Shown here piece after piece: positions 1,583 to 43,230 of a stretch of DNA of 43,620 bases. The DNA is from a virus. Taxonomy: Duplodnaviria; Heunggongvirae; Uroviricota; Caudoviricetes. The DNA lies in the IMG/VR virus record IMGVR_UViG_3300045988_007060, positions 1-43,620 of that record. One strand, written 5' to 3'. A program made the position numbers and the translations under genes. The notes below the pieces were generated by a model, which saw only the letters and a list, made by a program, of their open reading frames with translations, did not search any database and was not told the DNA's origin. Numbering within the stretch: the stretch's first letter is position 1; each line of letters opens with the position of its first letter.

Positions 1583-3844
1583 ATGTCCGATGTAATTTTA
1601 TCCTACTCGTGGTCTCGTCGCAACGCGCGGGCGGAGAAAAAGGATATAAACGTCAGAACCACACACACGGCAACACTGGACGACCTGAAAGAGTTAATCC
1701 AGCCGCTTGATGCCGTTCGCGATGGGATTAACCCGAAGACCGCGCCCGGTTATATTACCGCCGCTTGTGACTCAACGCACAGCACCGTAAAAGACCCGGA
1801 AACCGGTGACTTTAAGCAAGCGCGTAAAGGCTTCTTCTATCGCTGTGACGCGTCTGTAAGAAAATCGTCACTGGCGTATCTGGACTTCGACAGCGCAACG
1901 CCGGAAGAGTATCGGGAAGCGGTGCGTCTGGTTAAGCGCAGCCGACAGGTGATGTGCCTCTATACCACGGCATCCCATACCGACGAGTCACCGCGCTTTC
2001 GCGTCGTCATGCCGCTGGCCCGCCCGGTTGAAGGGGGTGACATCATCCGTGTTCGCCACGGATTGCTGGAGCACTTCTTCAAAGGCATGGGTGCCGACCG
2101 CAGCGGGTTTACGCTGTCTCAGCCGATGTACCTGCCACCGGTTGGCTCTACCGTTATCTGGTCTCGTCGCAACGACCTGATTGACCCGGACGAGTTGCTG
2201 GAAGGTATCCCCGCCGTTGACGTTAGCAGCGCATCTGACTACCAGATACCGGAAGAACTGCGCACCGCGTTTACCGATGCGTTTGAAGCACTGGCTTTTG
2301 AATACGGCGGCATCATGACGCCGCGCGGTCTGAAAATGCCAGCTACGCCGGAACACGCAGAAAACTACAGCGACCCGACGCCACGCCCGGACGACTTCCT
2401 GTTGTGCTTCCCGCGTGAAGGGTATGAGGCGCCTAACGTAACCATGATTCACGACACTGACATCACGGCAACAGAAGGCATGTCGCCGAAAGATGTGTGG
2501 AAGTACGCGTGCGATGCGACCGGGCTGCCGTTCAGTGAAGTGGCTGAGGCCATCGGCTGGGGTGCGCGTGAATCTGTTTCATGCAGCCTGGACGACCTGG
2601 AAGACGAGGACTCAGAGGACGAGTTACCGGAACCGGTAAAGGCTGATTTCGTCGTTGAGGGGTACATGCCGTCGGATTGTATCTGGGATATTGTCGGGGA
2701 ATCCGGCACGTACAAATCATTCTATACGCTCGGGATGATGTGCATTAGTGCCGCCGGATACCGGTTTGCCGGGGCAGATACCCAGCGTTGCCACCATTTC
2801 TATATCGACGGTGAAGGTGGCGCCGCTACGCGCACACGTATTGACGCACTCGCGGCTAAATATGGCGAGGAAGGTAAAGATTATGTACATGTTATCGACA
2901 TGGGTGAAGTCGGCAAACTGAAAAACCTGATTAAGTTGATGCGTGAAACCGCTGGCGACGAGCCAATTGGGATGGTCGCGTTCGACACCCTTAACCAGAC
3001 CCTGGCTCTGACGATTGATAAGTTCGATGAGAACAGTTCATCAACGGCAATCGGCATGGGTAAAGTTATTGCCATCCTGAAAGAAGTACGTGATGCGACT
3101 AAAGCCGCGGTAGGCGTCGTCCACCATACGCCGAAAGGTGGAAAGAAGGCCCGTGGCAGCGGGGCGCTGTATGCAGGTGTAGACGTAGAACTGACAATTG
3201 AGCGTGCAACAGACCGCCAGATAAACGTATACCACTCTAAATTCAAACACGGACCGCAACAGAAGACGGTTGGTATGGTGCTGGAGTCTGTACAGTTCCG
3301 TGAAGCGCCGCCGCCGAAAGAGTACCGCGCGGTTGAGTTCCCTGGCGGCACCGAGGAATACGGCACAATCGTAAACCTCGACCTGCCGGAGCCACACAAG
3401 GCGCTTGTGCTGATGCCGTGGGGCTTCGAGCCGTTCAAGACCGACGAGGAGAAAGAGCGGGAAGAAGGGCTGACAAAGGAAGGTAAAGAAAACGTACGCA
3501 AAACTGTAGAGAACGCTGTCAACAGTTCAGAGGCTACGATACTCGCAGCGTTTGAACTGGCGGAAGGAACTTACAAAGGCAACGAAGGTATCACGGTAGC
3601 CGCAGCGAATAAGCTAGCACAGTCTGACCCTAACGCAAAGGCGTTCAACTCCAAAGAAGCCATAGAACGCGGGAAGATTAAGAAAATGGTTGAGGCCGGG
3701 TATCTCGTACCCGGGACTGACGAAAACAATCAGATAATCCCGGGTCGTTACCGGCTGAACACCCGGATAACGGATAACAAGATTCCGAAGACAATATACG
3801 AACCGAATGAAATGTTAACAGTGACAGAGGAGGATTTGGAATGA
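1583..3844 (+). CDS. bifunctional primase-polymerase (AEP) / RecA-like replicative helicase
   Basis: N-terminus has AEP primase motifs (LAYLDFDS DxD; YTTASHTDE SxH); C-terminus has Walker A GESGTYKS, Walker B-like MVAFDTL and HHTPKGG. Start may be GTG 1541 or ATG 1583 (GAAGGA RBS). Confidence 0.8.
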   Translation: MSDVILSYSWSRRNARAEKKDINVRTTHTATLDDLKELIQPLDAVRDGINPKTAPGYITAACDSTHSTVKDPETGDFKQARKGFFYRCDASVRKSSLAYLDFDSATPEEYREAVRLVKRSRQVMCLYTTASHTDESPRFRVVMPLARPVEGGDIIRVRHGLLEHFFKGMGADRSGFTLSQPMYLPPVGSTVIWSRRNDLIDPDELLEGIPAVDVSSASDYQIPEELRTAFTDAFEALAFEYGGIMTPRGLKMPATPEHAENYSDPTPRPDDFLLCFPREGYEAPNVTMIHDTDITATEGMSPKDVWKYACDATGLPFSEVAEAIGWGARESVSCSLDDLEDEDSEDELPEPVKADFVVEGYMPSDCIWDIVGESGTYKSFYTLGMMCISAAGYRFAGADTQRCHHFYIDGEGGAATRTRIDALAAKYGEEGKDYVHVIDMGEVGKLKNLIKLMRETAGDEPIGMVAFDTLNQTLALTIDKFDENSSSTAIGMGKVIAILKEVRDATKAAVGVVHHTPKGGKKARGSGALYAGVDVELTIERATDRQINVYHSKFKHGPQQKTVGMVLESVQFREAPPPKEYRAVEFPGGTEEYGTIVNLDLPEPHKALVLMPWGFEPFKTDEEKEREEGLTKEGKENVRKTVENAVNSSEATILAAFELAEGTYKGNEGITVAAANKLAQSDPNAKAFNSKEAIERGKIKKMVEAGYLVPGTDENNQIIPGRYRLNTRITDNKIPKTIYEPNEMLTVTEEDLE

Positions 3845-4155
3845 ATATCTACGATTTTATAGATAACCCATTTAAAGCAGTGAAGGCAGGATACCGCCCG
3901 TCATACCTGACATGTGTTTCCGCGGTAAGCGGCCACTGGTGGACTTTTTGTGTTTACACGGCGGGGATTTTTGCGGAGTTTAAAGACATTTTAGATATGA
4001 CGCTGGCGGAGATTATAAAGTGCCTTTTCAAGTTGATTATCGCGATAACTATTGTAATAAGTTTTCCTGTAAGTGTGTGGTTTCTGGCCTGGATTCAGTA
4101 CCTGAACGTGCAACACACGGTTAAGAATTTGGAAGAACTCGATAAGTTGCAATAA
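3841..4155 (+). CDS. small membrane protein
   Basis: GAGGAGG RBS, ATGA overlap with primase stop; hydrophobic segment LFKLIIAITIVISFPVSVWFLAWI. Confidence 0.5.
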   Translation: MNIYDFIDNPFKAVKAGYRPSYLTCVSAVSGHWWTFCVYTAGIFAEFKDILDMTLAEIIKCLFKLIIAITIVISFPVSVWFLAWIQYLNVQHTVKNLEELDKLQ

Positions 4156-4168
4156 AAAGAAAGGGGCG

Positions 4169-4384
4169 TTAAACCCCTTCACCGAACGCCAGCCACTTGG
4201 CGTCTACTTGCAGCACTTCTGCCAGTTTAAACAGCGTCGCCGGGCGTACGTCCTGAGTTACCCCAAGCGCAAGCTGGTTAATTGCGCCCTGGGAAACGCC
4301 AGCCATGACAGCCAGACGGCGCTGGGAGATGCCAAGTTCTTTACGGCGTTGTTCTACACGGATGCCTAGTTCAGATGGTTGCAT
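4169..4384 (-). CDS. XRE-family HTH transcriptional regulator (Cro/CI-type, 71 aa)
   Basis: RRKELGISQRRLAVMAGVSQGAINQLALG is a canonical XRE HTH; AAGGAG RBS; divergent from early promoter 4449-4477; hairpin with T-run on - strand at 4162-4178. Confidence 0.8.
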   Translation of the reverse strand: MQPSELGIRVEQRRKELGISQRRLAVMAGVSQGAINQLALGVTQDVRPATLFKLAEVLQVDAKWLAFGEGV

Positions 4385-4404
4385 GTCAATTACTCCTTAG
4401 TTAG

Positions 4405-4433
4405 TTGATATGTGAATAGTACCATATTAATTA
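4405..4433. promoter_or_regulatory. operator copy in repressor-proximal intergenic region
   Basis: TGTGAATAGTACCATATTAA matches the operator motif; sits between the repressor start and the rightward promoter. Confidence 0.4.
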
Positions 4434-4448
4434 TTTTAGAAAAGCCCG

Positions 4449-4477
4449 TTGACACGTGAATAGTTCGCTATTATAGT
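4449..4477 (+). promoter_or_regulatory. sigma70-like early promoter with embedded operator
   Basis: TTGACA(4449-4454)-N17-TATAGT(4472-4477); spacer carries GTGAATAGTTCGCTATTAT dyad. Confidence 0.65.
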
Positions 4478-4508
4478 TAGCACATACCAAACGAGAGGAG
4501 AGAAACAA

Positions 4509-5000
4509 ATGTTAGAGAAATTCTTAGTATTACTGGAACGTTTCGTGGTTGCACATGAACTGATTGCTGCGAATAGTGCGAAACAGTTCGCGCCAACTAC
4601 TGCCAAAGAGGCTGCCGCAGTAGCCGCACATAAAATTGAGCAGTTCTCTGAAAGTATTAAAGAAGAAACAAAAGAAATCCCGGTGGAAGGCGAAGACATC
4701 GTTGACACTAAACCAGCAGAAGAAGAGAAGCCAAAACGCAAGCCGCGTAAAGCTAAAGCAGAGGAGCCGACGCCAGAGCCGGAAGAAGAAGTCGATTACC
4801 AGTCTCTGCGCGACCAGATTCAGGCTATCGATGATGCGATTAACGAAGGCCCTAGCGACGCCGCGTGCGATGACTCTGATGAACTGCTGGAAGAGTTCAC
4901 CGGTAAGAAGATGAAGATTGCCGCGATTAAAGACGAAGACCTTGCCGAGTACCTGGAACGTCTGACGGCAATCAAGAACAAGTATTTCGAAGAAGAATAA
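4509..5000 (+). CDS. acidic early protein, unknown function
   Basis: GAGAGGAGAG RBS; E/D-rich sequence with a central K/R-rich patch; first gene after the early promoter. Confidence 0.6.
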   Translation: MLEKFLVLLERFVVAHELIAANSAKQFAPTTAKEAAAVAAHKIEQFSESIKEETKEIPVEGEDIVDTKPAEEEKPKRKPRKAKAEEPTPEPEEEVDYQSLRDQIQAIDDAINEGPSDAACDDSDELLEEFTGKKMKIAAIKDEDLAEYLERLTAIKNKYFEEE

Positions 5001-5007
5001 CTATCTC

Positions 5008-5026
5008 GCGGCCTTCGGGCCGCTTT
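5008..5026 (+). terminator. hairpin, possible terminator/attenuator
   Basis: GCGGCC-TTCG-GGCCGC followed by TTT. Confidence 0.4.
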
Positions 5027-5043
5027 AACTGAGGGTCGGAAAT

Positions 5044-5316
5044 ATGATTTACCAACTCTACCGCGCCGTAGACAGGCGGGATACCACAGAGGCGCTATGG
5101 CTGTTACGTGCGCCGTCCGGTGCTCACCAGATGGAAGAGATGGCGTACTTAGGCAAAGTACCATGGCCTAAAGATATAGGCCGTCACGTGTCTCAGATTA
5201 AGCGCACGACGTTCGTCAAGCCTGACTTTTATGTCTTCGAGTCGATGTATAGCTGGGCTATGCACTGCGAACATAAGACACGACATTTAATTGACCAGTG
5301 GGAGAGCAGGGTATGA
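5044..5316 (+). CDS. hypothetical protein
   Basis: ATG at 5044 after GAGGGTCGG; stop overlaps next start (ATGA). Confidence 0.5.
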   Translation: MIYQLYRAVDRRDTTEALWLLRAPSGAHQMEEMAYLGKVPWPKDIGRHVSQIKRTTFVKPDFYVFESMYSWAMHCEHKTRHLIDQWESRV

Positions 5317-5810
5317 ACTGGCATGAAGTTTTTGACTACGACCCTGATACCGGTAAATTATTTTGGAAAATAAGTCCGTCAAAATCTGTAAAAATAGGGC
5401 AAGAAGCTGGCAGTACGAGGGAGGACAACGACGGGAGTGAATTTAAAATACTACGTTTTAACGGGACTACTAAACTTATCCACCACGTAGTTTGGGAGAT
5501 GTTTAACGGGGTGATAGCGCCCGGGGAAGTAATTCGTCATAAAAATAAAGATAGAACTGATAACAGAATAGAAAATCTTATAAAAATGCGTCGGGGAAGT
5601 ATCGCACACGGCACAAACATACGGACCGACAATACTTCAGGGGTTAAAGGTGTTGGGTTTCATAAACGCTACGGTAAGTGGGTCGCTAGAATTTATGTAG
5701 ACGGCAGGCCGATTTATTTAGGGGCTTACGATAAGTTAGAGAACGCGGCTAAGGCTCGTAGGCAAGCCGAGATTAAATATGGGTTTACAGTTAACGGAGC
5801 TGAGAAATGA
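5313..5810 (+). CDS. HNH homing endonuclease with AP2-like DNA-binding domain
   Basis: HHVVWEMFNG...HKNKDRTDNRIENL (HNH) and SGVKGVGFHKRYGKWVARIYVDGRPIYLG (AP2-like); GGAG RBS; paralog of 25860-26333. Confidence 0.8.
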   Translation: MNWHEVFDYDPDTGKLFWKISPSKSVKIGQEAGSTREDNDGSEFKILRFNGTTKLIHHVVWEMFNGVIAPGEVIRHKNKDRTDNRIENLIKMRRGSIAHGTNIRTDNTSGVKGVGFHKRYGKWVARIYVDGRPIYLGAYDKLENAAKARRQAEIKYGFTVNGAEK

Positions 5811-7108
5811 TTCTTAAAGAACGTGGCGGCAATAACGATGTGCACGCCTTACTGTCACCGTCAGGCGCTAAAAAGTGGCTAAGCTGTGCTGCATCACTGG
5901 CCTGTGAGAAAGATATTCCTAACACGTCCGGTAAAGCTGCGGTATTAGGCACAGCCATGCACACCATAGCGGAGGTCCATCTAAACGCCTATATCCGTGG
6001 CACTGCATTGCCGTTAGGGCGTGAAGTTGGCGCTTACGTGCTGGATGAAGGCAAAGGCCAGATTAAGGCGCTAATCAGCCCGATGAAAGGCGCGGTACTG
6101 ATTACGGCTGACATGATTGAGCAGGTGCGTAAGTACACCGATTACTGCAAAGCTATTATCGACGTGGCTACTTACGCCAAGCTGGAAATGTGCGTCAATC
6201 TTACTGAGGTATTGCATCCTGGCTACATTCATAGCCCTAACGGACGGCAAGAAGAACTACAGACATTCGGAACTTCTGACCTTGTTGCCGTACAGGAGAT
6301 GGCAAACACCGACGAGCACATGCTCATTATTGGCGACCTGAAAACAGGACGACATCGTGTCGAAGCGAAAGAAAACAAACAGCTTATGCTTTACGCTCTC
6401 GGTGTTTATCGCCGTCTCAAGAGACGTTATAACATAACAACTGTTCGTCTGGTAATCTTCCAACCGTACGCTGGTGGGGCGTCGGAGTGGGACATCTCGG
6501 TTGAAGGTCTGGAACTGTTCGCTAAGTTCGCACGGAAACGTGCACTGTTGGCGCTTGATGCATATTTCCGCGGCAAGAAGAACCTGAAAGCGTCGGACTT
6601 CAGGCCGTCGGTCGATGGCTGCCAGTGGTGTCGGTTCTCTGAACAATGCGCCGTGCGTACAAAGACGGTTAACGCAGTACTGGCAGAAGAACTGGAGGAC
6701 GACTTTGCACTGGAACTGACACCAGAGCAACTCGTAGCTGAGTACGAGAAGTTGCCGTTGTTGCGCCAGCACATCGACAAGGTTGAGAAAGCTATGGCCG
6801 CCGCTTTGCATTCCGGTAAGAAAGTGCCGGGGTATAAGCTGGTTGAAGGTCGTCCGGGTAATCGTAGCTGGAGTGATGAAAAATGGGTCGAAGAACTAGC
6901 AGCGCGCCATAACGTAGACATGGATTTGCTAACAAAGAAATCTGTTATGTCACCAACGGAAGCGGAAAAAGTGTTAAAAGGCGCGTATGCCAGGATGTGG
7001 GCCGAACTGGAAACGAAAGTTACTCGTAAGCCAGGCGCGCCATGCGTCGCAACGGCAGACGACAAACGGCCTGAGTGGAATCAGGTTAGTGAAGAAGATT
7101 TAGAATAA
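5807..7108 (+). CDS. PD-(D/E)XK Cas4/RecB-like exonuclease (DUF2800-type)
   Basis: IGDLKTGRHRV..QLMLYALGV nuclease core plus C-terminal Cys cluster DGCQWCRFSEQC; position upstream of DUF2815 and PolA. Confidence 0.75.
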   Translation: MILKERGGNNDVHALLSPSGAKKWLSCAASLACEKDIPNTSGKAAVLGTAMHTIAEVHLNAYIRGTALPLGREVGAYVLDEGKGQIKALISPMKGAVLITADMIEQVRKYTDYCKAIIDVATYAKLEMCVNLTEVLHPGYIHSPNGRQEELQTFGTSDLVAVQEMANTDEHMLIIGDLKTGRHRVEAKENKQLMLYALGVYRRLKRRYNITTVRLVIFQPYAGGASEWDISVEGLELFAKFARKRALLALDAYFRGKKNLKASDFRPSVDGCQWCRFSEQCAVRTKTVNAVLAEELEDDFALELTPEQLVAEYEKLPLLRQHIDKVEKAMAAALHSGKKVPGYKLVEGRPGNRSWSDEKWVEELAARHNVDMDLLTKKSVMSPTEAEKVLKGAYARMWAELETKVTRKPGAPCVATADDKRPEWNQVSEEDLE

Positions 7109-7112
7109 AGTG

Positions 7113-7141
7113 TTGACACCTGAATAGTTAGCTATTATAGT
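7113..7141 (+). promoter_or_regulatory. sigma70-like promoter with embedded operator
   Basis: TTGACA(7113-7118)-N17-TATAGT(7136-7141); spacer CCTGAATAGTTAGCTAT. Confidence 0.65.
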
Positions 7142-7195
7142 TCTAATCACTGGCCGGGCAGTTTCCCGGAGTAAACTTAAAAGCGAGAAATCAAG

Positions 7196-7822
7196 ATGGG
7201 ACTGAAATTAAATCTACGTAAAGTAAACACTGCATGGGTTAACGTATTCGAACGCGAAAAAGACCGTGAAAACGATGATGGCTCAATCACTAAAGGCCAG
7301 TACAGCGCGACTATTATCCTGCCATCTGACCATGCTCAAATCGATGCGCTCTACGACACTGTTTACGCTGTAGTTGAAGAAGCGTTAGGTGCAGCCGCCG
7401 CCGAGAAATGGATGAAGTCGAACTACGGCGAAGGCAAGCACATGGATAAATGCGCGATTAAAGACATTGCCGAGCGCGACAATCCGTTTGAAGACTTCCC
7501 GGAAGGATTCTACTTCAAAGCGAAGGCACAGAAACAGCCGCTGATTGTAACCTCTAAAAAAGGTGAGACTCAGGTAGAGCAGGACTTCAATGTAGACGGC
7601 GAACAGATTGAAGGTGAACAGGTTTACAGCGGCTGTGTCGCCAACGTAAGCGTTGAAATCTGGTTTAGCCAGAAATATAAAGTCCTCGGCGTTAACCTGC
7701 TGGCAATTAAATACGTCGGCGAAGGTAAAGCGTTCGGCGGTTCTAAAGTTGCTGCAAGCGTTAATGACCTGGAAGACGACGAAGAAGATGGAGCACCGCG
7801 CCGTGAACGTCGTCGCCGTTAA
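7196..7822 (+). CDS. DUF2815-type ssDNA-binding protein
   Basis: Acidic C-terminal tail (DLEDDEEDG) then RRERRRR; conserved position between DUF2800 and PolA. Confidence 0.65.
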   Translation: MGLKLNLRKVNTAWVNVFEREKDRENDDGSITKGQYSATIILPSDHAQIDALYDTVYAVVEEALGAAAAEKWMKSNYGEGKHMDKCAIKDIAERDNPFEDFPEGFYFKAKAQKQPLIVTSKKGETQVEQDFNVDGEQIEGEQVYSGCVANVSVEIWFSQKYKVLGVNLLAIKYVGEGKAFGGSKVAASVNDLEDDEEDGAPRRERRRR

Positions 7823-7842
7823 TATCTGAATCAATTTAACTA

Positions 7843-7864
7843 AGGCCCTTCATTGGGCCTTTTT
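7843..7864 (+). terminator. rho-independent terminator
   Basis: AGGCCC-TTCATT-GGGCCT followed by TTTT. Confidence 0.6.
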
Positions 7865-7883
7865 ACTAAGGGTCGAAAATAAT

Positions 7884-10800
7884 ATGGCTAATTTATTGTA
7901 TCTTGATACCGAAACATTCTCTGAAGCTGACCTAAAGAAAGTAGGGTCATACGCATACGCGGAACACGCAACAACTGAGATTATAATATGTACATACGCC
8001 GTTGATGATGGGCCTGTAGAAGTATGGGATTGCACTTCCGAACCAGTAATGCCAATAAGCCTACGCGTTGCGCTACGTAATGTTATGCGCGGGCGTATGA
8101 GAATTGTAGGCCATAACTTTTTAATGTTCGACAGGCTAGTTATGAAGCACTGCTGGGGTGTGGATATCAAACCGAGAAATACCATCGACACTATGATTCG
8201 AGCGTTTCGTCACGCGCTGCCTGGGTCACTTGATGCGCTGTGCGAAGTGCTGGGCGTATCGGCGGACAATGCAAAAGACAAACGCGGCAAGGCGCTGATT
8301 CAGCGTTTCTCTAAACCGACGCCGAAGAACTACAAAATCCGTCGATACACCGCAGAAACACACCCTGACGAGTGGGCGCTGTTCATCAAGTACGCCGTGA
8401 GCGACATCACCGCGATGCGTGAAGTCTTCCATAAACTGCCGCGTTGGGGTAACTCCGAGTTCGAGGACCGTGTACTGGAGCTGGACCAGTTAATCAATGA
8501 CCGCGGGTTTAAGGTTGACGTCGCACTGGCGGAAGCCGCGATTGAAGCCGTGGAGAAGCACAAGGCACAGTTACAGGAAGAAGCCCAACGAAAATACGGC
8601 GGCTCGCTTACTGGTAAAGACTTCCTTCCGATTCTGCGTGAACTCGCACCCGCGCACCGCATCCATAACGCACAGAAGTCGACACTGAATGACCTGCTGG
8701 CAGACGATGATTTACCCGACGATGCTCGCATGATTATAGAAATGCGCCTCGGGGCCGCGTCCACCGCATCAACGAAATATAACCCACTGCTGTTGGGCCG
8801 CTCTTCTGACGACCGACGCCGCGGTTGCTTGCAGTACGGCGGGGCAAAACGCACTCTGCGATGGGCGGGTAAAGGCTTCCAACCGCAGAACCTCGCGCGC
8901 GGGTACTATCACGATGATGAACTGGATAAAGGCATTTCAGCGTTACTTAAGGGCCGCGCGCACCGCCGTTTTGATGTCGCTAAATTAACGGCATCGACGG
9001 TGCGTAGCTGCATCATACCGGAAGCAGGACATAAGTTTGTTGTTGCCGATTATTCTAACGTTGAGGGCCGAGGGCTTGCGTGGCTTGCAGGCGAAGAAAC
9101 CGCGCTAGATACGTTCCGCGCCGGGCTGGATATTTATTGCGTAACCGCAGGTAAGATGTTTGGCATGGACCCAGACGACATTAAGAAAGAACGTAAAGAC
9201 TTGCGCCAGATTGGTAAAGCGTGCCTTCACCGTCATACCCAAGTTTTGACCGATGGCGGATTTAAGGATATTATGGCGGTTACATCAACAGATAAAGTAT
9301 GGAGCGGTGAAAAATGGGTGAATACAAAAGGCGCGCACCTTATGGGGTGGAAACCGGTAATAAATGTGGACGGGGTGCTAATGACCGAAGACCACAAAAT
9401 CTTGGCGCATTCCTGGAAGCAGGCAAAGCAACTCGCTTCAAACAGATATATGATGGGCCTCGCCCTGGAGAGAGGTATGGACGCTTGGTTATCCTGCGCG
9501 AGTTACCAAAACGACAAGGCCAAAGACAACTACTCGTCCAATGTGATTGCGGGGGGATGCCGGGGCGGGTCTATTATGACAACGTCAGAGCGGGTAAAAC
9601 CACTCAATGCAACCGCTGCGCCCTTGAAGCAACAAAAAAATATCGTAAACAGTATTTCTGCTACGAAGACGCAATGCCGGATGATGCGCACAGAACGCGA
9701 TTACTCAACCGGCTGTCCGCGGCTATCACGCGAACAACAAGCCCCAGGGATAAGGGTTATAAAAACTATGGGGCAAGAGGCATCACGGTATTCGACCAGT
9801 GGAGGACTGATAAAAGGTCTTTTCTTAGATATGTTCAAACTCTGGAAAGCTGGGATGACCCGAACCTCGAAATGGATAGAATCGACACAGACGGTAACTA
9901 CGAACCTGGAAACATTCGGTTTGTCAGCCGTTCTGAAAACTGCCGAAACAGACGGCAAATACCCGAGCTTCAACGAAAGTATGATGCAGCCGTTGCCCGC
10001 ATTGCTGAACTTGAGCGGGAAATTAACCTACTGCGAGCCGGTGTACGACCTGATTGATGTGGAAGACGGCAACCGTTTTCTTATAGCCTCAGACTCTGGC
10101 TTTCTTGTGGCGCATAACTGCGAGCTTGGCCTCGGCTACGAGGGAGGCGTCGGAGCGTTCGTTACGTTCGCTAAAAACTTAGGTCTTGACCTTATTGAGA
10201 TGGCAAAAACAATGGACGGTACATTCCCGGGCCACATATGGGCCGCTACCGCACGCGGGTACGAGTGGGCACGCATCCAGGAAGCAAAGCGGCCACCGCA
10301 TCCAGGTGAAAAGGACGACAGACCATCGTATATTCTGGACAAGAAAGTGTGGCGCACATGTGACGCGATCAAGCGTATGTGGCGCGAGTCACACCCGGAA
10401 ACAGTAGCGTTCTGGCGGGACCTTAAAGACGGAATTTTAGCCGCTGTGCGCAATCCTGGTCGTGAATTTTGGGCGGGAGCACACTTGCGCAAGAATGGCG
10501 AGCGCGCTATCCGAATCTGGAGAACAGTAGAAACCGATTCATCAGGTAGGAAGGTTCCCGGTTGGTGGTTGTGTATGGAGTTGCCGTCAGGCCGTATCCT
10601 CTCGTATCCGGGGATCGGCGTTAGCGTGACAAAAGAAACAGACGAAGACGGACGGGTAAACACGAATGTGCGAATCAAGTACCAAGGTGAAAACCAGTTA
10701 ACCCGCCAATGGACTACCCTGTACACCCACGGCGGCAAAGCCTGTGAAAACATTGTTCAGGCGTTGTGCCGTGATTTACTAGCATATGCGATGATTAATG

Positions 10801-10979
10801 TTGAGGGTGGCGGGTATCCCATCGTGCTTTCGGTACACGATGAACTGGTGTGTGAAACTCCAGATACGCCTGATTACACGGTGGCTGAACTGGAAAAATT
10901 AATGTGTTCGCTGCCTGAGTGGGCTGAGGGGTTCCCGCTTGTAGCGGAAGGTGCGGAGATGAAACGTTATGCTAAGTAA
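7884..10979 (+). CDS. family-A DNA polymerase with 3'-5' exonuclease domain, interrupted by an intein
   Basis: Exo motif LYLDTETFS; motif A VVADYSNVEGRGLAWL; motif B split as RQIGKA / intein / CELGLGYEGG; motif C LSVHDELVCE. Confidence 0.9.
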   Translation: MANLLYLDTETFSEADLKKVGSYAYAEHATTEIIICTYAVDDGPVEVWDCTSEPVMPISLRVALRNVMRGRMRIVGHNFLMFDRLVMKHCWGVDIKPRNTIDTMIRAFRHALPGSLDALCEVLGVSADNAKDKRGKALIQRFSKPTPKNYKIRRYTAETHPDEWALFIKYAVSDITAMREVFHKLPRWGNSEFEDRVLELDQLINDRGFKVDVALAEAAIEAVEKHKAQLQEEAQRKYGGSLTGKDFLPILRELAPAHRIHNAQKSTLNDLLADDDLPDDARMIIEMRLGAASTASTKYNPLLLGRSSDDRRRGCLQYGGAKRTLRWAGKGFQPQNLARGYYHDDELDKGISALLKGRAHRRFDVAKLTASTVRSCIIPEAGHKFVVADYSNVEGRGLAWLAGEETALDTFRAGLDIYCVTAGKMFGMDPDDIKKERKDLRQIGKACLHRHTQVLTDGGFKDIMAVTSTDKVWSGEKWVNTKGAHLMGWKPVINVDGVLMTEDHKILAHSWKQAKQLASNRYMMGLALERGMDAWLSCASYQNDKAKDNYSSNVIAGGCRGGSIMTTSERVKPLNATAAPLKQQKNIVNSISATKTQCRMMRTERDYSTGCPRLSREQQAPGIRVIKTMGQEASRYSTSGGLIKGLFLDMFKLWKAGMTRTSKWIESTQTVTTNLETFGLSAVLKTAETDGKYPSFNESMMQPLPALLNLSGKLTYCEPVYDLIDVEDGNRFLIASDSGFLVAHNCELGLGYEGGVGAFVTFAKNLGLDLIEMAKTMDGTFPGHIWAATARGYEWARIQEAKRPPHPGEKDDRPSYILDKKVWRTCDAIKRMWRESHPETVAFWRDLKDGILAAVRNPGREFWAGAHLRKNGERAIRIWRTVETDSSGRKVPGWWLCMELPSGRILSYPGIGVSVTKETDEDGRVNTNVRIKYQGENQLTRQWTTLYTHGGKACENIVQALCRDLLAYAMINVEGGGYPIVLSVHDELVCETPDTPDYTVAELEKLMCSLPEWAEGFPLVAEGAEMKRYAK
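9222..10118 (+). mobile_element. intein in PolA motif B (299 codons in polymerase frame)
   Basis: Begins CLHRHTQVLTDGG, TxxH block GVLMTEDHKIL, ends VYDLIDVEDGNRFLIASDSGFLVAHN then Cys+1; central part in this frame looks like off-frame sequence. Confidence 0.8.
9314..10057 (+). CDS. HNH homing endonuclease encoded in the -1 frame inside the intein
   Basis: GERYGRLVIL, CDCG..CNRC, DRIDTDGNYEPGNIRFVSRSENCRN; GGAG 9 nt before ATG 9314; true start could be further downstream. Confidence 0.7.
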   Translation: MGEYKRRAPYGVETGNKCGRGANDRRPQNLGAFLEAGKATRFKQIYDGPRPGERYGRLVILRELPKRQGQRQLLVQCDCGGMPGRVYYDNVRAGKTTQCNRCALEATKKYRKQYFCYEDAMPDDAHRTRLLNRLSAAITRTTSPRDKGYKNYGARGITVFDQWRTDKRSFLRYVQTLESWDDPNLEMDRIDTDGNYEPGNIRFVSRSENCRNRRQIPELQRKYDAAVARIAELEREINLLRAGVRPD

Positions 10980-11100
10980 ACTGATTATCGTATTACTGGC
11001 GGGATTCGCCGCCGGTGTCTACTGTCACGAGGGTCAATACGGCATGATTGTCACCGTATTGGGTATGTTCATCGCAATTTATCTGTGGGTGCTGGAATGA
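10969..11100 (+). CDS. small membrane protein (43 aa)
   Basis: GGAG RBS; hydrophobic; first of three translationally coupled mini-ORFs. Confidence 0.35.
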   Translation: MLSKLIIVLLAGFAAGVYCHEGQYGMIVTVLGMFIAIYLWVLE

Positions 11101-11186
11101 AAATTTACGGGTTATACGAAGAAGACTGTCGAATCTGCCCGCGCTGCGGGATTGAGCATACAAAACGAGAGGGGTGCGTATTATGA
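11097..11186 (+). CDS. small Cys-rich protein (29 aa, zinc-ribbon-like)
   Basis: ATGA overlaps on both sides; DCRICPRCG...EGC. Confidence 0.3.
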   Translation: MKIYGLYEEDCRICPRCGIEHTKREGCVL

Positions 11187-11335
11187 CAATGTTTGTATTT
11201 TGGACGATAGTAACCATGCTCGCACTGTTACTCGGTGCGGGAATAGCTGCGATGTTCTGTTATGGCCTGTTCTTTAAGTTTGTCGGTGTTGCCGTTCTAG
11301 GCGGGGCGTTTATAACTTGGGTTCTGCGCTCATGA
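11183..11335 (+). CDS. small membrane protein (50 aa)
   Basis: ATGA overlaps; two hydrophobic segments. Confidence 0.35.
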   Translation: MTMFVFWTIVTMLALLLGAGIAAMFCYGLFFKFVGVAVLGGAFITWVLRS

Positions 11336-11616
11336 CCCCGGAGGGCAAGATTCAGAAATACGCAAAAGAACGATTCGAGGCCCTCGGTGGCCTCGTTCGT
11401 AAACTTTCCTACGAGGGGCGCTCCGGCGCTCCCGACCTGCTGGTAATTCTCCCCGGCGGCATCATCTGGTTCGTCGAGGTTAAGAAAGACGAAAACACGA
11501 AGCCAGACCCACACCAGTTACGCGAGCATGCGCGGATGTGTAAACGTGGTGCAAATGTTTTTGTCGTTGGCTCGTTCAAACAGGTTGACGACCTAATAGC
11601 GAACTATTATAGTTAA
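11332..11616 (+). CDS. VRR-NUC domain nuclease
   Basis: SGAPDLLVILPGGIIWFVEVKKD...GANVFVV resembles the VRR-NUC core. Confidence 0.7.
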   Translation: MTPEGKIQKYAKERFEALGGLVRKLSYEGRSGAPDLLVILPGGIIWFVEVKKDENTKPDPHQLREHARMCKRGANVFVVGSFKQVDDLIANYYS

Positions 11617-11646
11617 TCACACACCAACAATATAAGGAATTGAGAA

Positions 11647-11838
11647 ATGAAACACGAATATGACCGCAAACCAGCACGTGACATCGTACCGGGCGACATG
11701 ATTTTCAACGTTAAGACCCGTCGGCCTGTTGCCGTCGATACTGTGTTCGTCGAGTCGAACGGTAAACTGGTTATCGAAGATGTAACGGGTAACGTTACGG
11801 CGTTCGGGCGTAAAGAGCTTGTGCTGGTGCTGAAATGA
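11647..11838 (+). CDS. hypothetical protein
   Basis: AAGGAA RBS; stop overlaps next start. Confidence 0.5.
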   Translation: MKHEYDRKPARDIVPGDMIFNVKTRRPVAVDTVFVESNGKLVIEDVTGNVTAFGRKELVLVLK

Positions 11839-12518
11839 TTGTCTGGTCATTGTTTGACGGTTCGGGCATTATGGCCCAACCGTGGGCGGAAGCGGGCCAT
11901 ACTTGCTATTGTTTCAACTACGACGGCGCCGACCACGGAGACTACGCTCGATTGGGTGCAAAAGTTGAACATGAAAATATCCACTATATAAACGCGTGGA
12001 TTGATAATAAATTCGACTTCGACGTTGCGCCGGATATTATTTTCGCGTTCCCCCCATGCACAGATTTAGCCGTTAGCGGCGCGGCCCATTTCGAAACGAA
12101 GCGGAGAAGGAACCCAACGTTTCAGGTAGAGGCCGTGATTACATGCAAAGTGGCTGCGCGTCTGGCTAAAAAGTACAACGTACCGTATATGATTGAGAAC
12201 CCGGTTAGCGTTCTTTCGTCTTTATGGCGTAAGCCTGACTACGCGTTCAATCCGTACGAATACGGCGGCTATTTACCCGAAGACGACACGCATCCAATGT
12301 TCCCGGATGTTATCCCGGCGCGAGATGCATATGTTAAAAAGACGTGCCTGTGGGCCGGAAATGGGTTTGTTATGCCTAACGTTGCCGAGGTTGCCGTGGG
12401 CAGCGGAGATAACCCTGGTTGGGCTAAACTCGGCGGAAAGAGCGCCAGAACAAAAACAATCCGCAGCCTTACTCCGCGTGGGCTCGCAAAAGCAGTTTAC
12501 GAGGCTAATCATGTCTAA
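11835..12518 (+). CDS. DNA methyltransferase-like protein (C5-MTase-like motifs, short)
   Basis: LFDGSG (motif I-like), FPPCTDLAVSG (motif IV-like PC), MIENP (motif VI-like); only 227 aa, no obvious target-recognition domain. Confidence 0.45.
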   Translation: MIVWSLFDGSGIMAQPWAEAGHTCYCFNYDGADHGDYARLGAKVEHENIHYINAWIDNKFDFDVAPDIIFAFPPCTDLAVSGAAHFETKRRRNPTFQVEAVITCKVAARLAKKYNVPYMIENPVSVLSSLWRKPDYAFNPYEYGGYLPEDDTHPMFPDVIPARDAYVKKTCLWAGNGFVMPNVAEVAVGSGDNPGWAKLGGKSARTKTIRSLTPRGLAKAVYEANHV

Positions 12519-13935
12519 GTTTCAAAGGCGCGAGTACCAAAAGCTCATGACTTCGTTTATGTTGCGGCACAATCGCTGCAACATATGGGCAAGCATGGGT
12601 GCCGGGAAGACTGGCAGCGTACTGTGGGCATTAAACCGACTGTTCCGCAACGGCCAACTTAACGATGACGACCGCGTGTTAATACTAGCTCCGCTGCGCG
12701 TTGCGTCCGGCACATGGCCAGCAGAACAAGAGAAATGGCGATTCCCATGCCTGAGTGTCGTCGATGCCACGGGTTCGGAGAAGCGCCGCATCGCGGCGCT
12801 GGAGTCATACGCTAACGTGGTGTGCACGAACTATGAAGTTATCGAATGGCTGATTGACTACTACGGCAAAGACGACTGGCCTTTTACGGTTATCGTTGCC
12901 GATGAAAGCACGAAACTTAAATCATTCCGCAGCCGTTCCGGCGGAAGCAAGCGGGCAAAGGCGCTTAGCAAAGTGGCATTCGGTAAGGTTAAGCGTTTTA
13001 TCAACCTGACAGGTACGCCATCACCAAACGGCCTGAAGGACTTGTGGGGGCAGAACTGGTTTATTGACGCTGGCGAGCGACTGGGTTCTTCATACACCGC
13101 GTTCACCGACCGCTGGTTTAATTCGGTCCAGAAGGGTAAGTCCGCTATGGCGCGAGAGTATCATGCGCGCCCGGGGGCGGATAACGAAATTCACCAGAAG
13201 ATGAAGGACATCAGTCTCACGATTGACGCTGCCGAGTGGTTCGGGTGTGAAGCGCCTGTTATCGTGCCAGTGGAAATCGACCTGCCGAAGAAAGCACGTC
13301 AGGCGTACATCGATATGGAGGAGAAGTTATTCGCGGAACTGGAGAGCGGGGAGGTTGAAGCCGCTAACGCTGCGGCGAAGACGTCGAAGTGTTTGCAGAT
13401 TGCCTCCGGTGCCGTATATGTGTCAGGGCCAGACGGCGAAGCAACCAAAGACTGGGAGAAAGTGCACGATACGAAACTTGACGCGCTTGAGTCAATTGTC
13501 GAGGAGTTACAGGGCGCGCCGCTGCTTGTGGCTTATCAGTTCAAGCACGAACTGGAACGCATCCTGAAACGTTTCCCGCAGGCACAGGCGTTTGCAAAAG
13601 GCGCTAAGGGTAATAAGCAGATGGAAGCGTGGAACCGTGGTGAAATCGAAATACTATGCGTCCACCCTGCGTCAGCCGGTCATGGTTTAAATTTACAGGA
13701 CGGCGGGCATCATCTGGCGTTCATAAGTCAGGGATGGAACCTTGAGCACTATTTGCAGGTCGTTGAGCGTATAGGTCCAGTCCGTCAGAAACAGGCAGGA
13801 CACGAGCGCCCGGTGTTCCTCTACCACATCGTCGCTAAAGACACGCTGGACGAGGTTGTTGCCGCGCGTACGGACGAGAAAAAATCGGTACAGGAAGAGT
13901 TGCTTAATTACATGAAGAGACGAGGTAAGAAATGA
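12511..13935 (+). CDS. SNF2/DEAD-like superfamily 2 helicase
   Basis: MGAGKTG Walker A, ADESTKLK DExx box, helicase-C region HPASAGHGLNLQ; start chosen at ATG 12511 (MSKFQRREYQ). Confidence 0.85.
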   Translation: MSKFQRREYQKLMTSFMLRHNRCNIWASMGAGKTGSVLWALNRLFRNGQLNDDDRVLILAPLRVASGTWPAEQEKWRFPCLSVVDATGSEKRRIAALESYANVVCTNYEVIEWLIDYYGKDDWPFTVIVADESTKLKSFRSRSGGSKRAKALSKVAFGKVKRFINLTGTPSPNGLKDLWGQNWFIDAGERLGSSYTAFTDRWFNSVQKGKSAMAREYHARPGADNEIHQKMKDISLTIDAAEWFGCEAPVIVPVEIDLPKKARQAYIDMEEKLFAELESGEVEAANAAAKTSKCLQIASGAVYVSGPDGEATKDWEKVHDTKLDALESIVEELQGAPLLVAYQFKHELERILKRFPQAQAFAKGAKGNKQMEAWNRGEIEILCVHPASAGHGLNLQDGGHHLAFISQGWNLEHYLQVVERIGPVRQKQAGHERPVFLYHIVAKDTLDEVVAARTDEKKSVQEELLNYMKRRGKK

Positions 13936-14252: not shown

Positions 14253-14279
14253 GAAAAGGGCCTTTCGGCCCTTTTTTTT
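14253..14279. terminator. bidirectional rho-independent terminator between convergent arms
   Basis: GAAAA-GGGCC-TTTC-GGCCC-TTTTTTTT. Confidence 0.8.
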
Positions 14280-26589: not shown

Positions 26590-27760
26590 ACGCGTAACTA
26601 ATACGTTGAATTACGATAGATGATTGATATTGATTGCCTGTGGACTGTCCTTCAATGGACTGAGTGATTGACTCAGGTCCGCCAATCTCTGGCGTAACCG
26701 CCGTAAGCTCTGCGCGTTTCAAACTGAAAGACATAGCACCGTTTACCCCAGCCAGAATAGAGTTAATCTCTACCTGCTGTTCGTTGATAAACTTCTGAAT
26801 CATAGCCATGTCGTACAGTTTGCCGGAGATAGAGAATGTGTTAGCTGCGCGGCTACGTTCCACAAAGGCCACGTTAGTGTTGCCGAGTTCGAACTGTGCG
26901 GACGCGCTGTTGTCGTTAGTGATGGTCAGACTGTCGCAACGCAACGGCGTAGACCCATCGAACACAGAAACGTCAACCGAGGAGAACGGCTCGTCACCAA
27001 ACGTAACGGAAGAGAAGTCGGAACCGGACGGCTGCTCGGTGAGAATCTCCTGACTGCGACCGATGAACGGGAAGCTGCCAGTTACCATCGCATTAACTGC
27101 CTGTTCAACGGTAAAACCCGAAACTTCAACGCCTTTGGTCAGCGTATATACACTGGCCCCTCCGCACTGGCCTTTGTACCAGGTGAGAATAGAGAACGTC
27201 TTACATTGGTTACCGGTTTCCAGTTTATCTCCAGTTTTGGCCGCGGTAGTGACAGTCTCCGCGGTAAGAGTGTGCTGGATACCTGCACCTGTTACCGCCA
27301 GTGCCTCTACCGCAGTAACGATAAACGGCTTAGCGTTGTCGCCCGTTAAGTCGGTAAACGCAATCAGGTCGCCCACTTCAACGCCGTCGGTAATAAAGCT
27401 ACCATCAGCACGGGTGAACGTCTTACCCGCCGGTGCAACGGTAATCGATAACCCTGACAGAGAAGCCCCTGACTGCCACGTAGAGCCTAAAGCGCCAGCC
27501 AGCCAGTCGTCCTGGCTTTTCGAGCTAAGCTCAATTGCGTATTCCCCGCTAACCTGCCTGTTACCGGTGCGGATGGATGTAGTTTCACGGCTGCCGTCCA
27601 GTTCGTTGGAGGCCAGCGTGTCGCGGGTAACGGCGGGAACACCGCCTGTGTTGCGCAACGGCGACCAGACCGGGTTATCAGGTGTTACGCCCGGGGTCAC
27701 TTCCGCCACATAGAATTGCGCGGTATTCGCGCCCTTAAAAGGAGTTGTAGCCATATTCAC
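26588..27760 (-). CDS. major tail (tube) protein
   Basis: AAGAGG RBS; 390 aa; position between tail terminator-like genes and chaperones. Confidence 0.65.
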   Translation of the reverse strand: MNMATTPFKGANTAQFYVAEVTPGVTPDNPVWSPLRNTGGVPAVTRDTLASNELDGSRETTSIRTGNRQVSGEYAIELSSKSQDDWLAGALGSTWQSGASLSGLSITVAPAGKTFTRADGSFITDGVEVGDLIAFTDLTGDNAKPFIVTAVEALAVTGAGIQHTLTAETVTTAAKTGDKLETGNQCKTFSILTWYKGQCGGASVYTLTKGVEVSGFTVEQAVNAMVTGSFPFIGRSQEILTEQPSGSDFSSVTFGDEPFSSVDVSVFDGSTPLRCDSLTITNDNSASAQFELGNTNVAFVERSRAANTFSISGKLYDMAMIQKFINEQQVEINSILAGVNGAMSFSLKRAELTAVTPEIGGPESITQSIEGQSTGNQYQSSIVIQRISYA

Positions 27761-28921: not shown

Positions 28922-29535
28922 CCGGCGGCCTCCAGTCTCGAAATAACCAGTAGTGCTGACGGGGCGGTACCCCATGCGGTTACCGTAGCCGCTTGCGGGT
29001 ATACGCCGCCGAAGTTAGTTCCAGCACTATCCCGCATAATCTGAACGGCAAACGTCTGGCCCGCGGTTGGGTTAATAACAACGCGGGACTCAATCGGGAT
29101 TGTGGTGTCGGCACTTACCAGTTTAGTAGCTGCTGGCGAGCCGTACTGAGCGCCGTTCAGAAGAATACGCGATAACAGGATAGACGTGCCGCTAGCACCC
29201 GTGCGCCCAGCCTGTAACTTGATGCGAACGGCGTAGTTACCCGCGGTGTTGAACGTAACCAGCCCGGCGGCATTAATCATTACCGGGTCAGATGCGCTAC
29301 CCTGAGCAGAGCCGAAAGTTAACTGCAATGCTGTATCTACTGCGGTAGGCGCTTGTACCACGGTCGACGCGGCGCGGAGAACTTCAACCTCTTTCACCCC
29401 AGGAGTGGCGTAAATAGGCGAGTCCGCCATCTGTGTCATTACTTCACGCAATGCGGCGGGGGTAATAAGTCCGGTGGTGTTATCAGGAAGGTTAGCACCT
29501 ATAAGGGTAAACATCTCTGTCTTAGTCTTCGCCAT
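28918..29535 (-). CDS. structural protein, unknown role
   Basis: ORF within the head-tail joining cluster. Confidence 0.45.
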   Translation of the reverse strand: MAKTKTEMFTLIGANLPDNTTGLITPAALREVMTQMADSPIYATPGVKEVEVLRAASTVVQAPTAVDTALQLTFGSAQGSASDPVMINAAGLVTFNTAGNYAVRIKLQAGRTGASGTSILLSRILLNGAQYGSPAATKLVSADTTIPIESRVVINPTAGQTFAVQIMRDSAGTNFGGVYPQAATVTAWGTAPSALLVISRLEAAG

Positions 29536-29537
29536 TT

Positions 29538-30050
29538 TTAACCCCGGTACACGTTAAATGAGAAGCCATTGTTAAGTCCGCCACACAGTAGCGGGCGTAA
29601 AGCGTCGTCCGCAGCGGTGATCGAGGTCGTAGCACCACTGTTGCCGTTGTTGAAGTATGTCACCGTTACTGCACCCTCTACACGCTCCGTCTGCACGGAA
29701 CGACCGTCTGAGTTGGCGCGCACTTCGGTGCCTGCGCCATATGTAACGGCGGCGATTACCTGCGCAAGAATTATCTGCTTCGGAATGACATTGTTTGCTA
29801 CAGGGAACCCATTTAGCGTTACGCCGGTTCGCGGGTACGCAAGAGACTGCTCTGCGGATACACGACGACCGCACATCTGCGGTTCTGCAAGCCCGACATA
29901 AGTAGCGCCGTTGCGCAAGGCCACCCCTGCCGCGGTATCGTCTTCCGGCAGCTCAAGACCATAATTAGCCGCTAACGCGCGGGCGTCAGCCAGACTAACG
30001 TAACTGTCAGCGCCAGGTACTATTGACCCATCTTCCACGATTAGCGGCAT
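29538..30050 (-). CDS. head-tail adaptor/connector-like protein
   Basis: AGAGGAA RBS; N-terminal MPLIVEDGS..ADSYVSLADA pattern typical of phage connectors. Confidence 0.5.
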   Translation of the reverse strand: MPLIVEDGSIVPGADSYVSLADARALAANYGLELPEDDTAAGVALRNGATYVGLAEPQMCGRRVSAEQSLAYPRTGVTLNGFPVANNVIPKQIILAQVIAAVTYGAGTEVRANSDGRSVQTERVEGAVTVTYFNNGNSGATTSITAADDALRPLLCGGLNNGFSFNVYRG

Positions 30051-30623: not shown

Positions 30624-30633
30624 TTTAATCCCC

Positions 30634-42980: not shown

Positions 42981-43014
42981 AAGTCACAAAGCCAAATAGT
43001 AAACTATTGACCTG

Positions 43015-43227: not shown

Positions 43228-43230
43228 AGC

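Follow-up and report, generated by a model that had tools for sequence, protein, structure and literature searches.

The Seg enzymes of phage T4 are GIY-YIG homing endonucleases that cleave at a distance and spread by intronless homing, with co-conversion of flanking DNA. A separate group of homing endonucleases, the HNH-AP2 enzymes, is cited as an established family (Magnani, Sjolander and Hake 2004, as cited in PMC10448857), and nuclease genes, including the 'IPA-HNH' genes of ICP1, lie at recombination or exchange boundaries in phage genomes (Barth et al. 2023, PMC10448857). For the HNH portion the reference enzyme is I-HmuI of Bacillus phage SPO1 (PDB 1U3E), in which residues D74, H75 and N96 have catalytic or metal-ligand roles (PMC12724721). 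Inteins with an out-of-frame endonuclease were reported in 2025 in actinophages (Gosselin, Arsenault and Gogarten, bioRxiv 10.1101/2025.01.02.630785); a 'hidden HNH' insertion of a related kind has been described in a methylase gene (ShiLan; PMC11855218). Here we examine elements of both kinds in a 43,620-nt stretch of tailed-phage DNA (IMG/VR record IMGVR_UViG_3300045988_007060, positions 1 to 43,620; the window): two free-standing HNH-AP2 genes of the homing endonuclease gene (HEG) type, HEG-1 and HEG-2, and a DNA polymerase intein with an HNH-like open reading frame (ORF) nested inside it.

HEG-1 and HEG-2 share with the known HNH-AP2 homing endonucleases, ICP1 'IPA-HNH' genes included, an N-terminal HNH domain, a C-terminal AP2 domain, a free-standing gene, a patchy distribution and a position at exchange boundaries. 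From that family HEG-2 differs in nothing of kind, while HEG-1 is set apart by substituted metal ligands and strong purifying selection. HEG-2 also resembles the T4-type free-standing enzymes, such as SegG, in its intergenic insertion, in the apparent asymmetric co-conversion of a few hundred base pairs of a conserved neighbour and in a recoded linked allele; the Seg enzymes, however, are of the GIY-YIG type, and the exchange seen here appears to have run between genera, from Jerseyvirus to Kagunavirus. Overall, we favour an account in which two HNH-AP2 cassettes were acquired, HEG-2 being mobile and HEG-1 settled, and in which the intein carries an overprinted gene; we hold this account with considerable confidence.

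The window covers almost the whole genome of a Kagunavirus-like siphophage (Guernseyvirinae). By megablast, window positions 4000-12000 matched 464 phage records; the best matches were E. coli K1-type Kagunaviruses at about 90% identity, with Salmonella Jerseyviruses further off. In a bin-wise comparison with eight relatives, most of the genome was 85-95% identical to Kagunaviruses and 65-85% identical to Jerseyviruses, and several segments, including the tailspike gene and part of the tape-measure gene, had no match in these eight.

Architecture of HEG-1 and HEG-2

The two genes and their domains are as follows.

5313..5810, + strand: HEG-1, free-standing HNH-AP2 gene of 165 amino acids (aa), from ATG at 5313 to TGA at 5808-5810; degenerate active site with R75-H76...N88...I97 replacing D-H...N...N
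25860..26333, + strand: HEG-2, free-standing HNH-AP2 gene of 157 aa, from TTG at 25860 to TGA at 26331-26333; canonical D69-H70...N82...N91..N94
5475..5612, + strand: HNH (beta-beta-alpha) core of HEG-1, residues 55-100, placed by ungapped alignment to HEG-2, via HEG-2 to I-HmuI, and by column counts in alignments A1 and A2
5631..5780, + strand: C-terminal AP2-fold domain of HEG-1, residues 107-156, predicted to bind DNA; sub-threshold Pfam AP2, phmmer match to WRI1, Foldseek
26004..26141, + strand: HNH core of HEG-2, residues 49-94; Pfam HNH_3, alignment to 1U3E, profile, model
26160..26300, + strand: AP2-fold domain of HEG-2, residues 101-147; family profile and Foldseek, with no match by single-sequence Pfam search

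We found that the two proteins are 35% identical across 157 residues (E 4e-21), far above chance. Both match Pfam HNH_3 (PF13392) above its cut-off of 24.8 bits (HEG-1, 6e-13, 48.7 bits; HEG-2, 2.5e-21, 75.5 bits), and phrog_99, 'HNH endonuclease', takes in both (1.7e-50 and 1.1e-48, respectively); NCBIfam returned nothing for HEG-1, HEG-2 or the intein-nested protein. The Pfam AP2 match of HEG-1 (4.7e-6, 27.2 bits) lies under the gathering cut-off of 33.3 bits. A phmmer search matched HEG-1 to WRI1 (7WQ5; 1.2e-5), and the HEG-2 family profile matched 1U3E (6.8e-9, residues 1-99), WRI1 (1.9e-4) and TEM1 (4.6e-3). AlphaFold models built on alignments A1 and A2, which together hold 97 rows, had pLDDT (predicted local distance difference test) values of 86.6 for HEG-1 and 90.4 for HEG-2. 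In Foldseek searches of the PDB, I-HmuI was the top match of both models, followed by the plant AP2 domains of TEM1 and WRI1 for the C-terminal 40-60 residues (root-mean-square deviation 1.1-1.3 A for HEG-1 to TEM1/WRI1 and 1.4 A for HEG-2 to TEM1). I-HmuI is the best match in both structure and sequence, over the N-terminal two-thirds of each protein (the beta-sheet DNA-binding region and the HNH_3 core). Unlike the free-standing, AP2-bearing HEG-1 and HEG-2, I-HmuI is an intron-encoded HNH homing or nicking enzyme with helical and helix-turn-helix C-terminal DNA-binding modules. An initial annotation, made by a model from the letters of the window, had proposed that the two ORFs share HNH and AP2-like domains. 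This was borne out: both ORFs are present, with the motifs V/IWEMFNG, DNRIENL, SGV.GV and GKWV..I, and as judged by sequence matches and predicted folds the HNH plus AP2-fold architecture is real in HEG-1 and HEG-2.

Insertion sites and distribution

Four genes flank the two cassettes.

5044..5316, + strand: 90-aa gene (orf90; phrog_4965) upstream of HEG-1, its stop overlapping the HEG-1 start in ATGA at 5313-5316
5807..7108, + strand: DUF2800 / PD-(D/E)XK (Cas4-like) nuclease gene downstream of HEG-1, its ATG overlapping the HEG-1 stop in ATGA at 5807-5810; Pfam DUF2800 1.2e-69, PDDEXK_1 6.4e-8
24724..25863, + strand: Mre11/SbcD-like metallophosphoesterase gene, the probable target of HEG-2, its stop overlapping the HEG-2 start (TTGA); both Pfam Metallophos matches below the cut-off
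26330..26560, + strand: 76-aa gene (phrog_2452) downstream of HEG-2, its ATG overlapping the HEG-2 stop (ATGA)

Empty sites exist for both genes. At the HEG-1 site, fKuEco01 reads GGGTATGATT, a single ATGA joining the 90-aa gene directly to the DUF2800/PD-(D/E)XK nuclease gene, while the window has an exact 494-nt insert with ATGA at either end. At the HEG-2 site, ZCEC5 reads ...GAGATGCTGGGATGACTTC..., in which ATGA couples the metallophosphoesterase gene to the 76-aa gene; the cassette in the window opens with TTGA and closes with ATGA. The GC content of the cassettes (HEG-1, 42.4%; HEG-2, 41.6%) compares with 51% for the genome and falls below the 5th percentile of 480-nt windows. Each low-GC cassette of about 0.5 kb sits exactly between two translationally coupled genes and, since the cassettes rebuild the overlapping stop and start codons, their expression would ride on the host operon.

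The initial annotation had proposed comparing related genomes at these same junctions, and presence proved to be polymorphic in every case. Full-length HEG-1 occurs in 4 of 251 matching phage records (representing 3 phages), full-length HEG-2 in 8 of 335, all of them Salmonella or Shigella phages, and the polymerase intein in 162 of 339. HEG-1 and HEG-2 are each a discrete insertion, variably present at a fixed site. Among individual relatives, EcoPhCCP1 carries only HEG-1, CTH7 only HEG-2, KMB36 only the intein and fKuEco01 none of the three: the elements assort independently. The HEG-1 junction also holds other cargo, namely an HNH-AP2 allele 54% identical to HEG-1 in horsemountain, UPWr_S2-4 and SXAU_B4, and a 57-aa ORF in fPoEco01.

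Two further expectations concerned number and neighbourhood. The count of three endonuclease-type selfish genes in 43 kb stands, as tblastn with HEG-1 and HEG-2 and PHROG scans of 10 unassigned ORFs revealed no further homing endonuclease gene in the window. The genes had also been placed next to conserved targets (a replication nuclease, tail genes and polymerase motif B). HEG-1 adjoins a nuclease gene and the intein lies in motif B, but HEG-2 sits beside no tail gene; its neighbour is the Mre11/SbcD-like gene, annotated 'DNA repair exonuclease' in relatives.

Relatives carry additional genes of this type. KMB36 has three other phrog_99-type genes elsewhere in its genome, and its HNH-AP2-type genes at different junctions lie at 12411-12950, 26564-27061, 30353-30688 and 2784-4754; those of ZCEC5 lie at 29478-29936 and about 42891-43328. 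These extra genes of KMB36 and ZCEC5 adjoin the tail tube gene or sit upstream or downstream of the polymerase gene.

HEG-2: an intact active site and a probable co-conversion footprint

HEG-2 retains the equivalents of I-HmuI D74, H75, N87 and N96 as D69, H70, N82 and N91, and has N94 in addition. Its upstream flank contains one further feature.

25384..25859, + strand: putative co-conversion tract, the 3' 480 nt of the metallophosphoesterase gene, a Jerseyvirus-type HEG-linked allele delimited by a switch in identity

The 5' 660 nt of this 1140-nt gene are 83-95% identical to Kagunaviruses and 50-95% identical to Jerseyviruses. From alignment column ~661 (window ~25384), the gene is instead 88-98% identical to the HEG-2-carrying Jerseyviruses CTH7 and S4lw, as against 53-80% to the HEG-less alleles of Kagunaviruses and 62-93% to that of the Jerseyvirus PK1. 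From 26334, immediately after the cassette, the sequence is Kagunavirus-type again (93-97% in the first 100-nt bin). The tract is therefore asymmetric, lying only upstream of HEG-2 with a breakpoint at ~25384. Most of the differences within it are synonymous, since the encoded protein is still 86-90% identical in aa to the HEG-less alleles. Differences fixed between HEG-carrying and HEG-less alleles are confined to the tract and are most concentrated over the final ~60 nt ahead of the junction, a stretch in which the HEG-less alleles of the two genera are nearly identical to one another. HEG-2 itself is 98% identical in aa to its CTH7 counterpart across genera, with stretches of 100% nt identity.

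These data are consistent with a co-conversion scar left by recent homing between genera, from Jerseyvirus to Kagunavirus, and HEG-2 probably is a recently active homing endonuclease. In a mixed infection, HEG-2 would cut or nick a HEG-less allele of the Mre11-like phosphoesterase gene close to the gene's 3' end; the break would be resected, repair would be templated by the HEG-carrying genome, and the HEG-2 gene plus ~480 bp of upstream flank would be copied in. The imported flank would then be a Jerseyvirus-type, synonymously recoded and presumably cleavage-resistant allele inside a Kagunavirus-type genome. We infer that the candidate recognition region is the 3' end of the phosphoesterase gene corresponding to 25804-25862, a region conserved in HEG-less alleles and recoded in HEG-carrying ones. 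In every feature that could be assessed from its sequence, HEG-2 is a member of the free-standing HNH-AP2 homing endonucleases.

Three points weigh against so direct a reading. The tract could in principle be the product of ordinary homologous recombination that chanced to end at the cassette. The detailed comparison covers 8-9 genomes out of ~460 relatives. Finally, the contrast between an apparently 'active' HEG-2 and an apparently 'inactive' HEG-1 is drawn from residues and population patterns.

The initial annotation had regarded the genome as an arena of active selfish elements that would explain its mosaic junctions. The second proposal fits HEG-2, which has a mosaic junction, and the intein, which lies in an island of high identity (see below), but not HEG-1, which has neither a co-conversion nor a mosaic signal. 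In outline the annotation was correct in seeing the genome as colonised by selfish genes of the endonuclease type. We did not find catalytic residues mutated in both genes and their presence fixed, but an intact HEG-2 and polymorphic presence. HNH-AP2 genes are among the commonest phage accessory genes, copies almost identical to the present ones already bear the annotation 'HNH endonuclease' or 'homing endonuclease' (in EcoPhCCP1 and CTH7), and the elements of the window are ordinary phage biology of modest interest. Their value is that one 43-kb genome of culturable enterobacterial phages offers three clean, testable cases; HEG-2 contributes an apparent case of homing across genera, for which a co-conversion breakpoint is mapped and a target predicted.

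HEG-1: lost metal ligands and retained constraint

HEG-1 keeps the equivalents of I-HmuI H75 (H76) and N87 (N88), but both ligand positions are substituted: in I-HmuI numbering, D74 is replaced by R (R75) and N96 by I (I97), and N99 is replaced by G. The residue assignment is secure because the alignments to HEG-2 and to the canonical allele at the same site are ungapped there. The motif ...VIRH.NKDRTDNRIENLIKMRRGSIAHGT is present in all four genomic alleles (the window, EcoPhCCP1, ZCEC5 and LM02P1) and in the metagenomic representatives P0001 and P0002. Outside the HEG-1 clade, no sequence among the 97 rows of A1 and A2 lacks both the D74 and the N96 equivalents. These two residues and N99 are conserved in more than 90% of homologs, N99 being nearly invariant; in a rougher scan of ~300 family members, 240 had DHNNN, with sporadic other residues at the D position.

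In spite of these losses, the four genomic alleles, all of which inherit the substitutions, have a ratio of nonsynonymous to synonymous divergence (dN/dS) of 0.09-0.13 at dS up to 0.45, which is at or below the ratios of orf90, the nuclease gene and the adjacent 13.88-kDa gene. Among the relatives compared, we found no co-conversion, HEG-linked flank allele or identity switch on either side of HEG-1. The HEG-1 model has low pLDDT (65-74) over residues 91-110, the helix expected to bear the ligand.

On balance, we lean towards the view that HEG-1 no longer cleaves by the canonical mechanism. The intact residues of HEG-2 accord with the expectation that the HNH genes are active homing endonucleases, while HEG-1, in which the equivalents of D74 and N96 are lost, probably does not act as a canonical HNH nuclease. 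With these catalytic residues substituted, we describe HEG-1 as derived from the family and do not count it as a demonstrated endonuclease. Probably it has settled and is kept as a sequence-specific DNA-binding protein with a regulatory or site-occupying function. Possible roles include regulation of the adjacent replication and recombination genes, or that of a 'site guardian' that would exclude the canonical endonuclease allele of the same site.

The alternative that survives best is that both genes are active and drive mosaicism at both junctions, HEG-1 having a non-canonical metal site or acting as a nickase through other ligands. The case against a settled HEG-1 is that it retains the general-base His and the structural Asn, that its HNH core is almost invariant among the four alleles and under strong purifying selection, and that its site could be non-canonical but still catalytic. 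Some His-Me nucleases bind metal through a single protein ligand or through different ones, and R, Y, K, E or N occasionally occupies the D74 position in other homologs. HEG-1 is also polymorphic for presence with a clean empty site, and between carriers the divergence of HEG-1 and of orf90 upstream of it (dS 0.11-0.35) is lower than that of the nuclease gene on the downstream side (0.55). We nevertheless think this alternative rather unlikely: the residues replaced by R, I and G include the reported metal ligands or catalytic residues of I-HmuI, model confidence falls over just the helix that should carry the ligand, and neither flank bears the linked allele or identity switch seen at HEG-2.

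A second alternative holds that the cassettes are domesticated phage genes, serving in marker exclusion, in the breakdown of DNA from the host or from satellites, or in gene regulation, and that their patchiness reflects accessory-gene turnover and no homing. Domestication of homing endonucleases is documented in phages (PMC10448857), expressed I-HmuI-like enzymes cause marker exclusion in Skunavirus (PMC12724721), AP2-domain phage proteins can be pure DNA-binding silencers (bioRxiv 10.64898/2026.02.23.707548), and HEG-1 does evolve like a constrained resident gene. As an explanation of both cassettes, however, domestication is unlikely, as HEG-2 bears the classical homing footprint of an exact junction insertion, an asymmetric flank that appears co-converted and a recoded linked allele, and is near-identical across genera; moreover, exclusion and homing can coexist. 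For HEG-1 alone, the plant AP2/ERF factors and the phage CasPR silencers (bioRxiv 10.64898/2026.02.23.707548) may be analogues, with an AP2 fold that binds without cleavage. These proteins have no HNH domain at all, whereas HEG-1 keeps a conserved, ligand-less HNH core, known here from its sequence.

A further alternative, and a very improbable one, is that HEG-1 has reached the close of its homing cycle and is now decaying into a pseudogene. Loss of the catalytic residues and of any co-conversion signal is what such decay would predict, but each of the four carriers has an intact ORF; dN/dS, which here reflects change since the common ancestor in which the substitutions had become fixed, is ~0.10 for dS values reaching 0.45; HEG-1 is as constrained as its neighbouring genes or more so; and the metagenomic clusters P0001 and P0002 contain 97 member sequences. 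We rejected decay on the dN/dS values.

A settled, DNA-binding HEG-1 remains our preferred reading. A stronger version, in which the HEG-1 clade is a natural, selectively maintained, nuclease-dead HNH-AP2 protein acting as a pure DNA-binding factor, is one that we put forward tentatively. If it is true, HEG-1 would be a living intermediate on the path from endonuclease to AP2 transcription factor that has been proposed for plants. The canonical (D-H...N...N) same-site allele of horsemountain and UPWr_S2-4 (Salmonella) and SXAU_B4 (E. coli), found at loci L004 1814-2335 and L008 23643-24161, forms with HEG-1 a natural pair at one site, one member active-looking and the other ligand-less, and this pair could show what a homing endonuclease becomes once cutting stops.

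Origin of the two cassettes

The family to which HEG-1 and HEG-2 belong is large, with 63,052 representatives (50%-identity clusters) at E<=1e-3 and 13,388 at E<=1e-10; tblastn matched 2,724 phage records with HEG-1 and 3,075 with HEG-2. The closest outside relatives of HEG-2 are a CTH7/PST-H1 gene annotated 'homing endonuclease' (98% aa identity) and genes of Klebsiella and E. coli phages (60-71%). Those of HEG-1 are its own clade and then the 54%-identical allele at the same site. Because HEG-1 and HEG-2 are only 35% alike, against 54% and 60-71% with these outside genes, independent acquisition without duplication accounts for the pair: on sequence identity, they are independently acquired cassettes of a large phage HNH-AP2 homing-endonuclease family. 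The term 'paralogous' used in the initial annotation is accordingly misleading. That the two are true paralogs, produced by duplication and transposition within the phage lineage, is scarcely credible, since against their common architecture and their being each other's only homolog inside the window stand the higher identities to outside genes, on which we rejected in-genome duplication, and their separate occurrence in all relatives examined.

The polymerase intein and its out-of-frame ORF

The third element comprises two overlapping features.

9222..10118, + strand: class-1 intein of 299 aa, located in motif B of the gene for the family-A DNA polymerase (7884-10979), with C1, a TEDH block B and a terminal HN, then C+1
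9314..10057, + strand: HNH-like endonuclease ORF of 247 aa, nested in the intein in a non-polymerase frame; phrog_374 'HNH endonuclease', 9.5e-47

The polymerase of the window has 1031 aa, and the intein interrupts it at RQIGKA|C...HN|CELGLGY, in motif B as originally annotated; intein-less alleles read RQIGKA|CELGLGY, with a native Cys at the junction. The splicing residues are all present (CLHRHT..., MTEDHKIL and ...FLVAHN|C). Because the polymerase is essential and the splicing blocks are intact, we infer that the precursor undergoes protein splicing.

The initial annotation had described an HNH endonuclease nested in this intein. An ORF does lie inside it at 9314-10057, but in a separate reading frame: by Pfam and NCBIfam the in-frame intein sequence contains no HNH, LAGLIDADG or other nuclease domain, and its middle part, which has no domain match, evolves at dN/dS ~1. 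In all 8 intein-bearing phages that we examined, the nested ORF is open. Across the overlap core (9462-10055) this alternative frame evolves at dN/dS ~0.13 (for instance, dS 0.76 and dN 0.10 against PS2), as opposed to ~1 for the polymerase frame, and outside this core it is the polymerase frame that is constrained. When the nested protein is recoded synonymously, the polymerase frame stays free of stops in only 0.23% of cases, from which it follows that this frame is held open by selection. With a polymerase frame that is merely kept open, the intein would behave as a mini-intein with a long linker, and the HNH-like protein would presumably be translated from its own start, a conserved ATG preceded by GGAG 9 nt upstream.

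The intein also appears to have spread recently. The high-identity island matches KMB36 and SXAU_B4 at 97-99% identity (99% for 9500-10000), compared with ~90% in the flanks and exteins, and is ~95% identical to Salmonella phages; recent spread is indicated because the identity of the island exceeds that of the exteins.

The family of the nested protein comprises at least 291 sequences, free-standing genes among them, and copies in Sodalis phage SO-1 and Salmonella phage SS3e are annotated 'HNH endonuclease'. Its members share a Cys4 CapR-like zinc ribbon and an invariant D-R...N...N..N at residues 186-214 (alignment A3). Several observations count against identifying this protein as an HNH nuclease. 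The invariant D-R stands where HNH_3 has D-H. An hhalign comparison of the nested family with the HNH-AP2 profile was weak (41% probability) and covered only the DxxD...N...N stretch. Pfam found only CapR, in 8 of 40 family members, and the nested protein had no nuclease match in Pfam or the PDB, PDB sequence and profile searches giving only insignificant zinc-ribbon-like matches (E>=0.06). Its putative nuclease identity is taken from PHROG and GenBank names and from the pattern of spread.

The intein fits the recently described class with an out-of-frame endonuclease, to judge from the arrangement of its frames. Like the actinophage cases and ShiLan, it has an endonuclease-type ORF in another frame, a host frame free of stops and signs of continuing horizontal spread, and, as in the actinophage inteins, the ORF lies between the intein splicing blocks. 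In the actinophage inteins the enzyme is endonuclease VII-like and encoded in frame 3, and a Shine-Dalgarno sequence is lacking. The element in the window differs from them in being a SETP3-type DNA polymerase intein of enterobacterial Guernseyvirinae, in encoding a CapR-like ribbon with a D-R-type HNH-like protein, and in having GGAG before the ATG. In the literature on the SETP3 intein we found incidental mentions only, and no description of an out-of-frame gene in Guernseyvirinae. Such genes have so far come mainly from surveys of actinophage genomes; the present case would place an out-of-frame endonuclease gene in a widespread polymerase intein of tractable E. coli and Salmonella phages. 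The KMB36 paper notes only a head-protein intein; the 1031-aa polymerase of KMB36 also holds the intein type of the window.

Other features of the window

Within the DUF2800/PD-(D/E)XK gene, patches at 6200-6300 and 6800-7000 are 47-67% identical to all six relatives compared, while the rest of the gene is 85-95% identical. The tailspike gene (14278-17151) and part of the tape-measure gene (~22000-24000) had no blastn match in the eight relatives; both are unique modules of a host-range or mosaic kind and have no relation to the endonuclease genes. The segment at 3501-4155, which follows the helicase-primase gene and includes the ORF 3841-4155 (phrog_2638), matches LM02P1 only; in other relatives its place is taken by a DicA-like repressor gene on the minus strand. 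The ORF at 11835-12518, which is DNA methyltransferase-like (phrog_757, 4.6e-86), is shared among the compared genomes only by CTH7 and LM02P1; other relatives have different methylase genes there, or none. Finally, positions 840-1200 in the early-gene region have the lowest GC content of the window (39-42%, compared with 51%) and may be another foreign insert.

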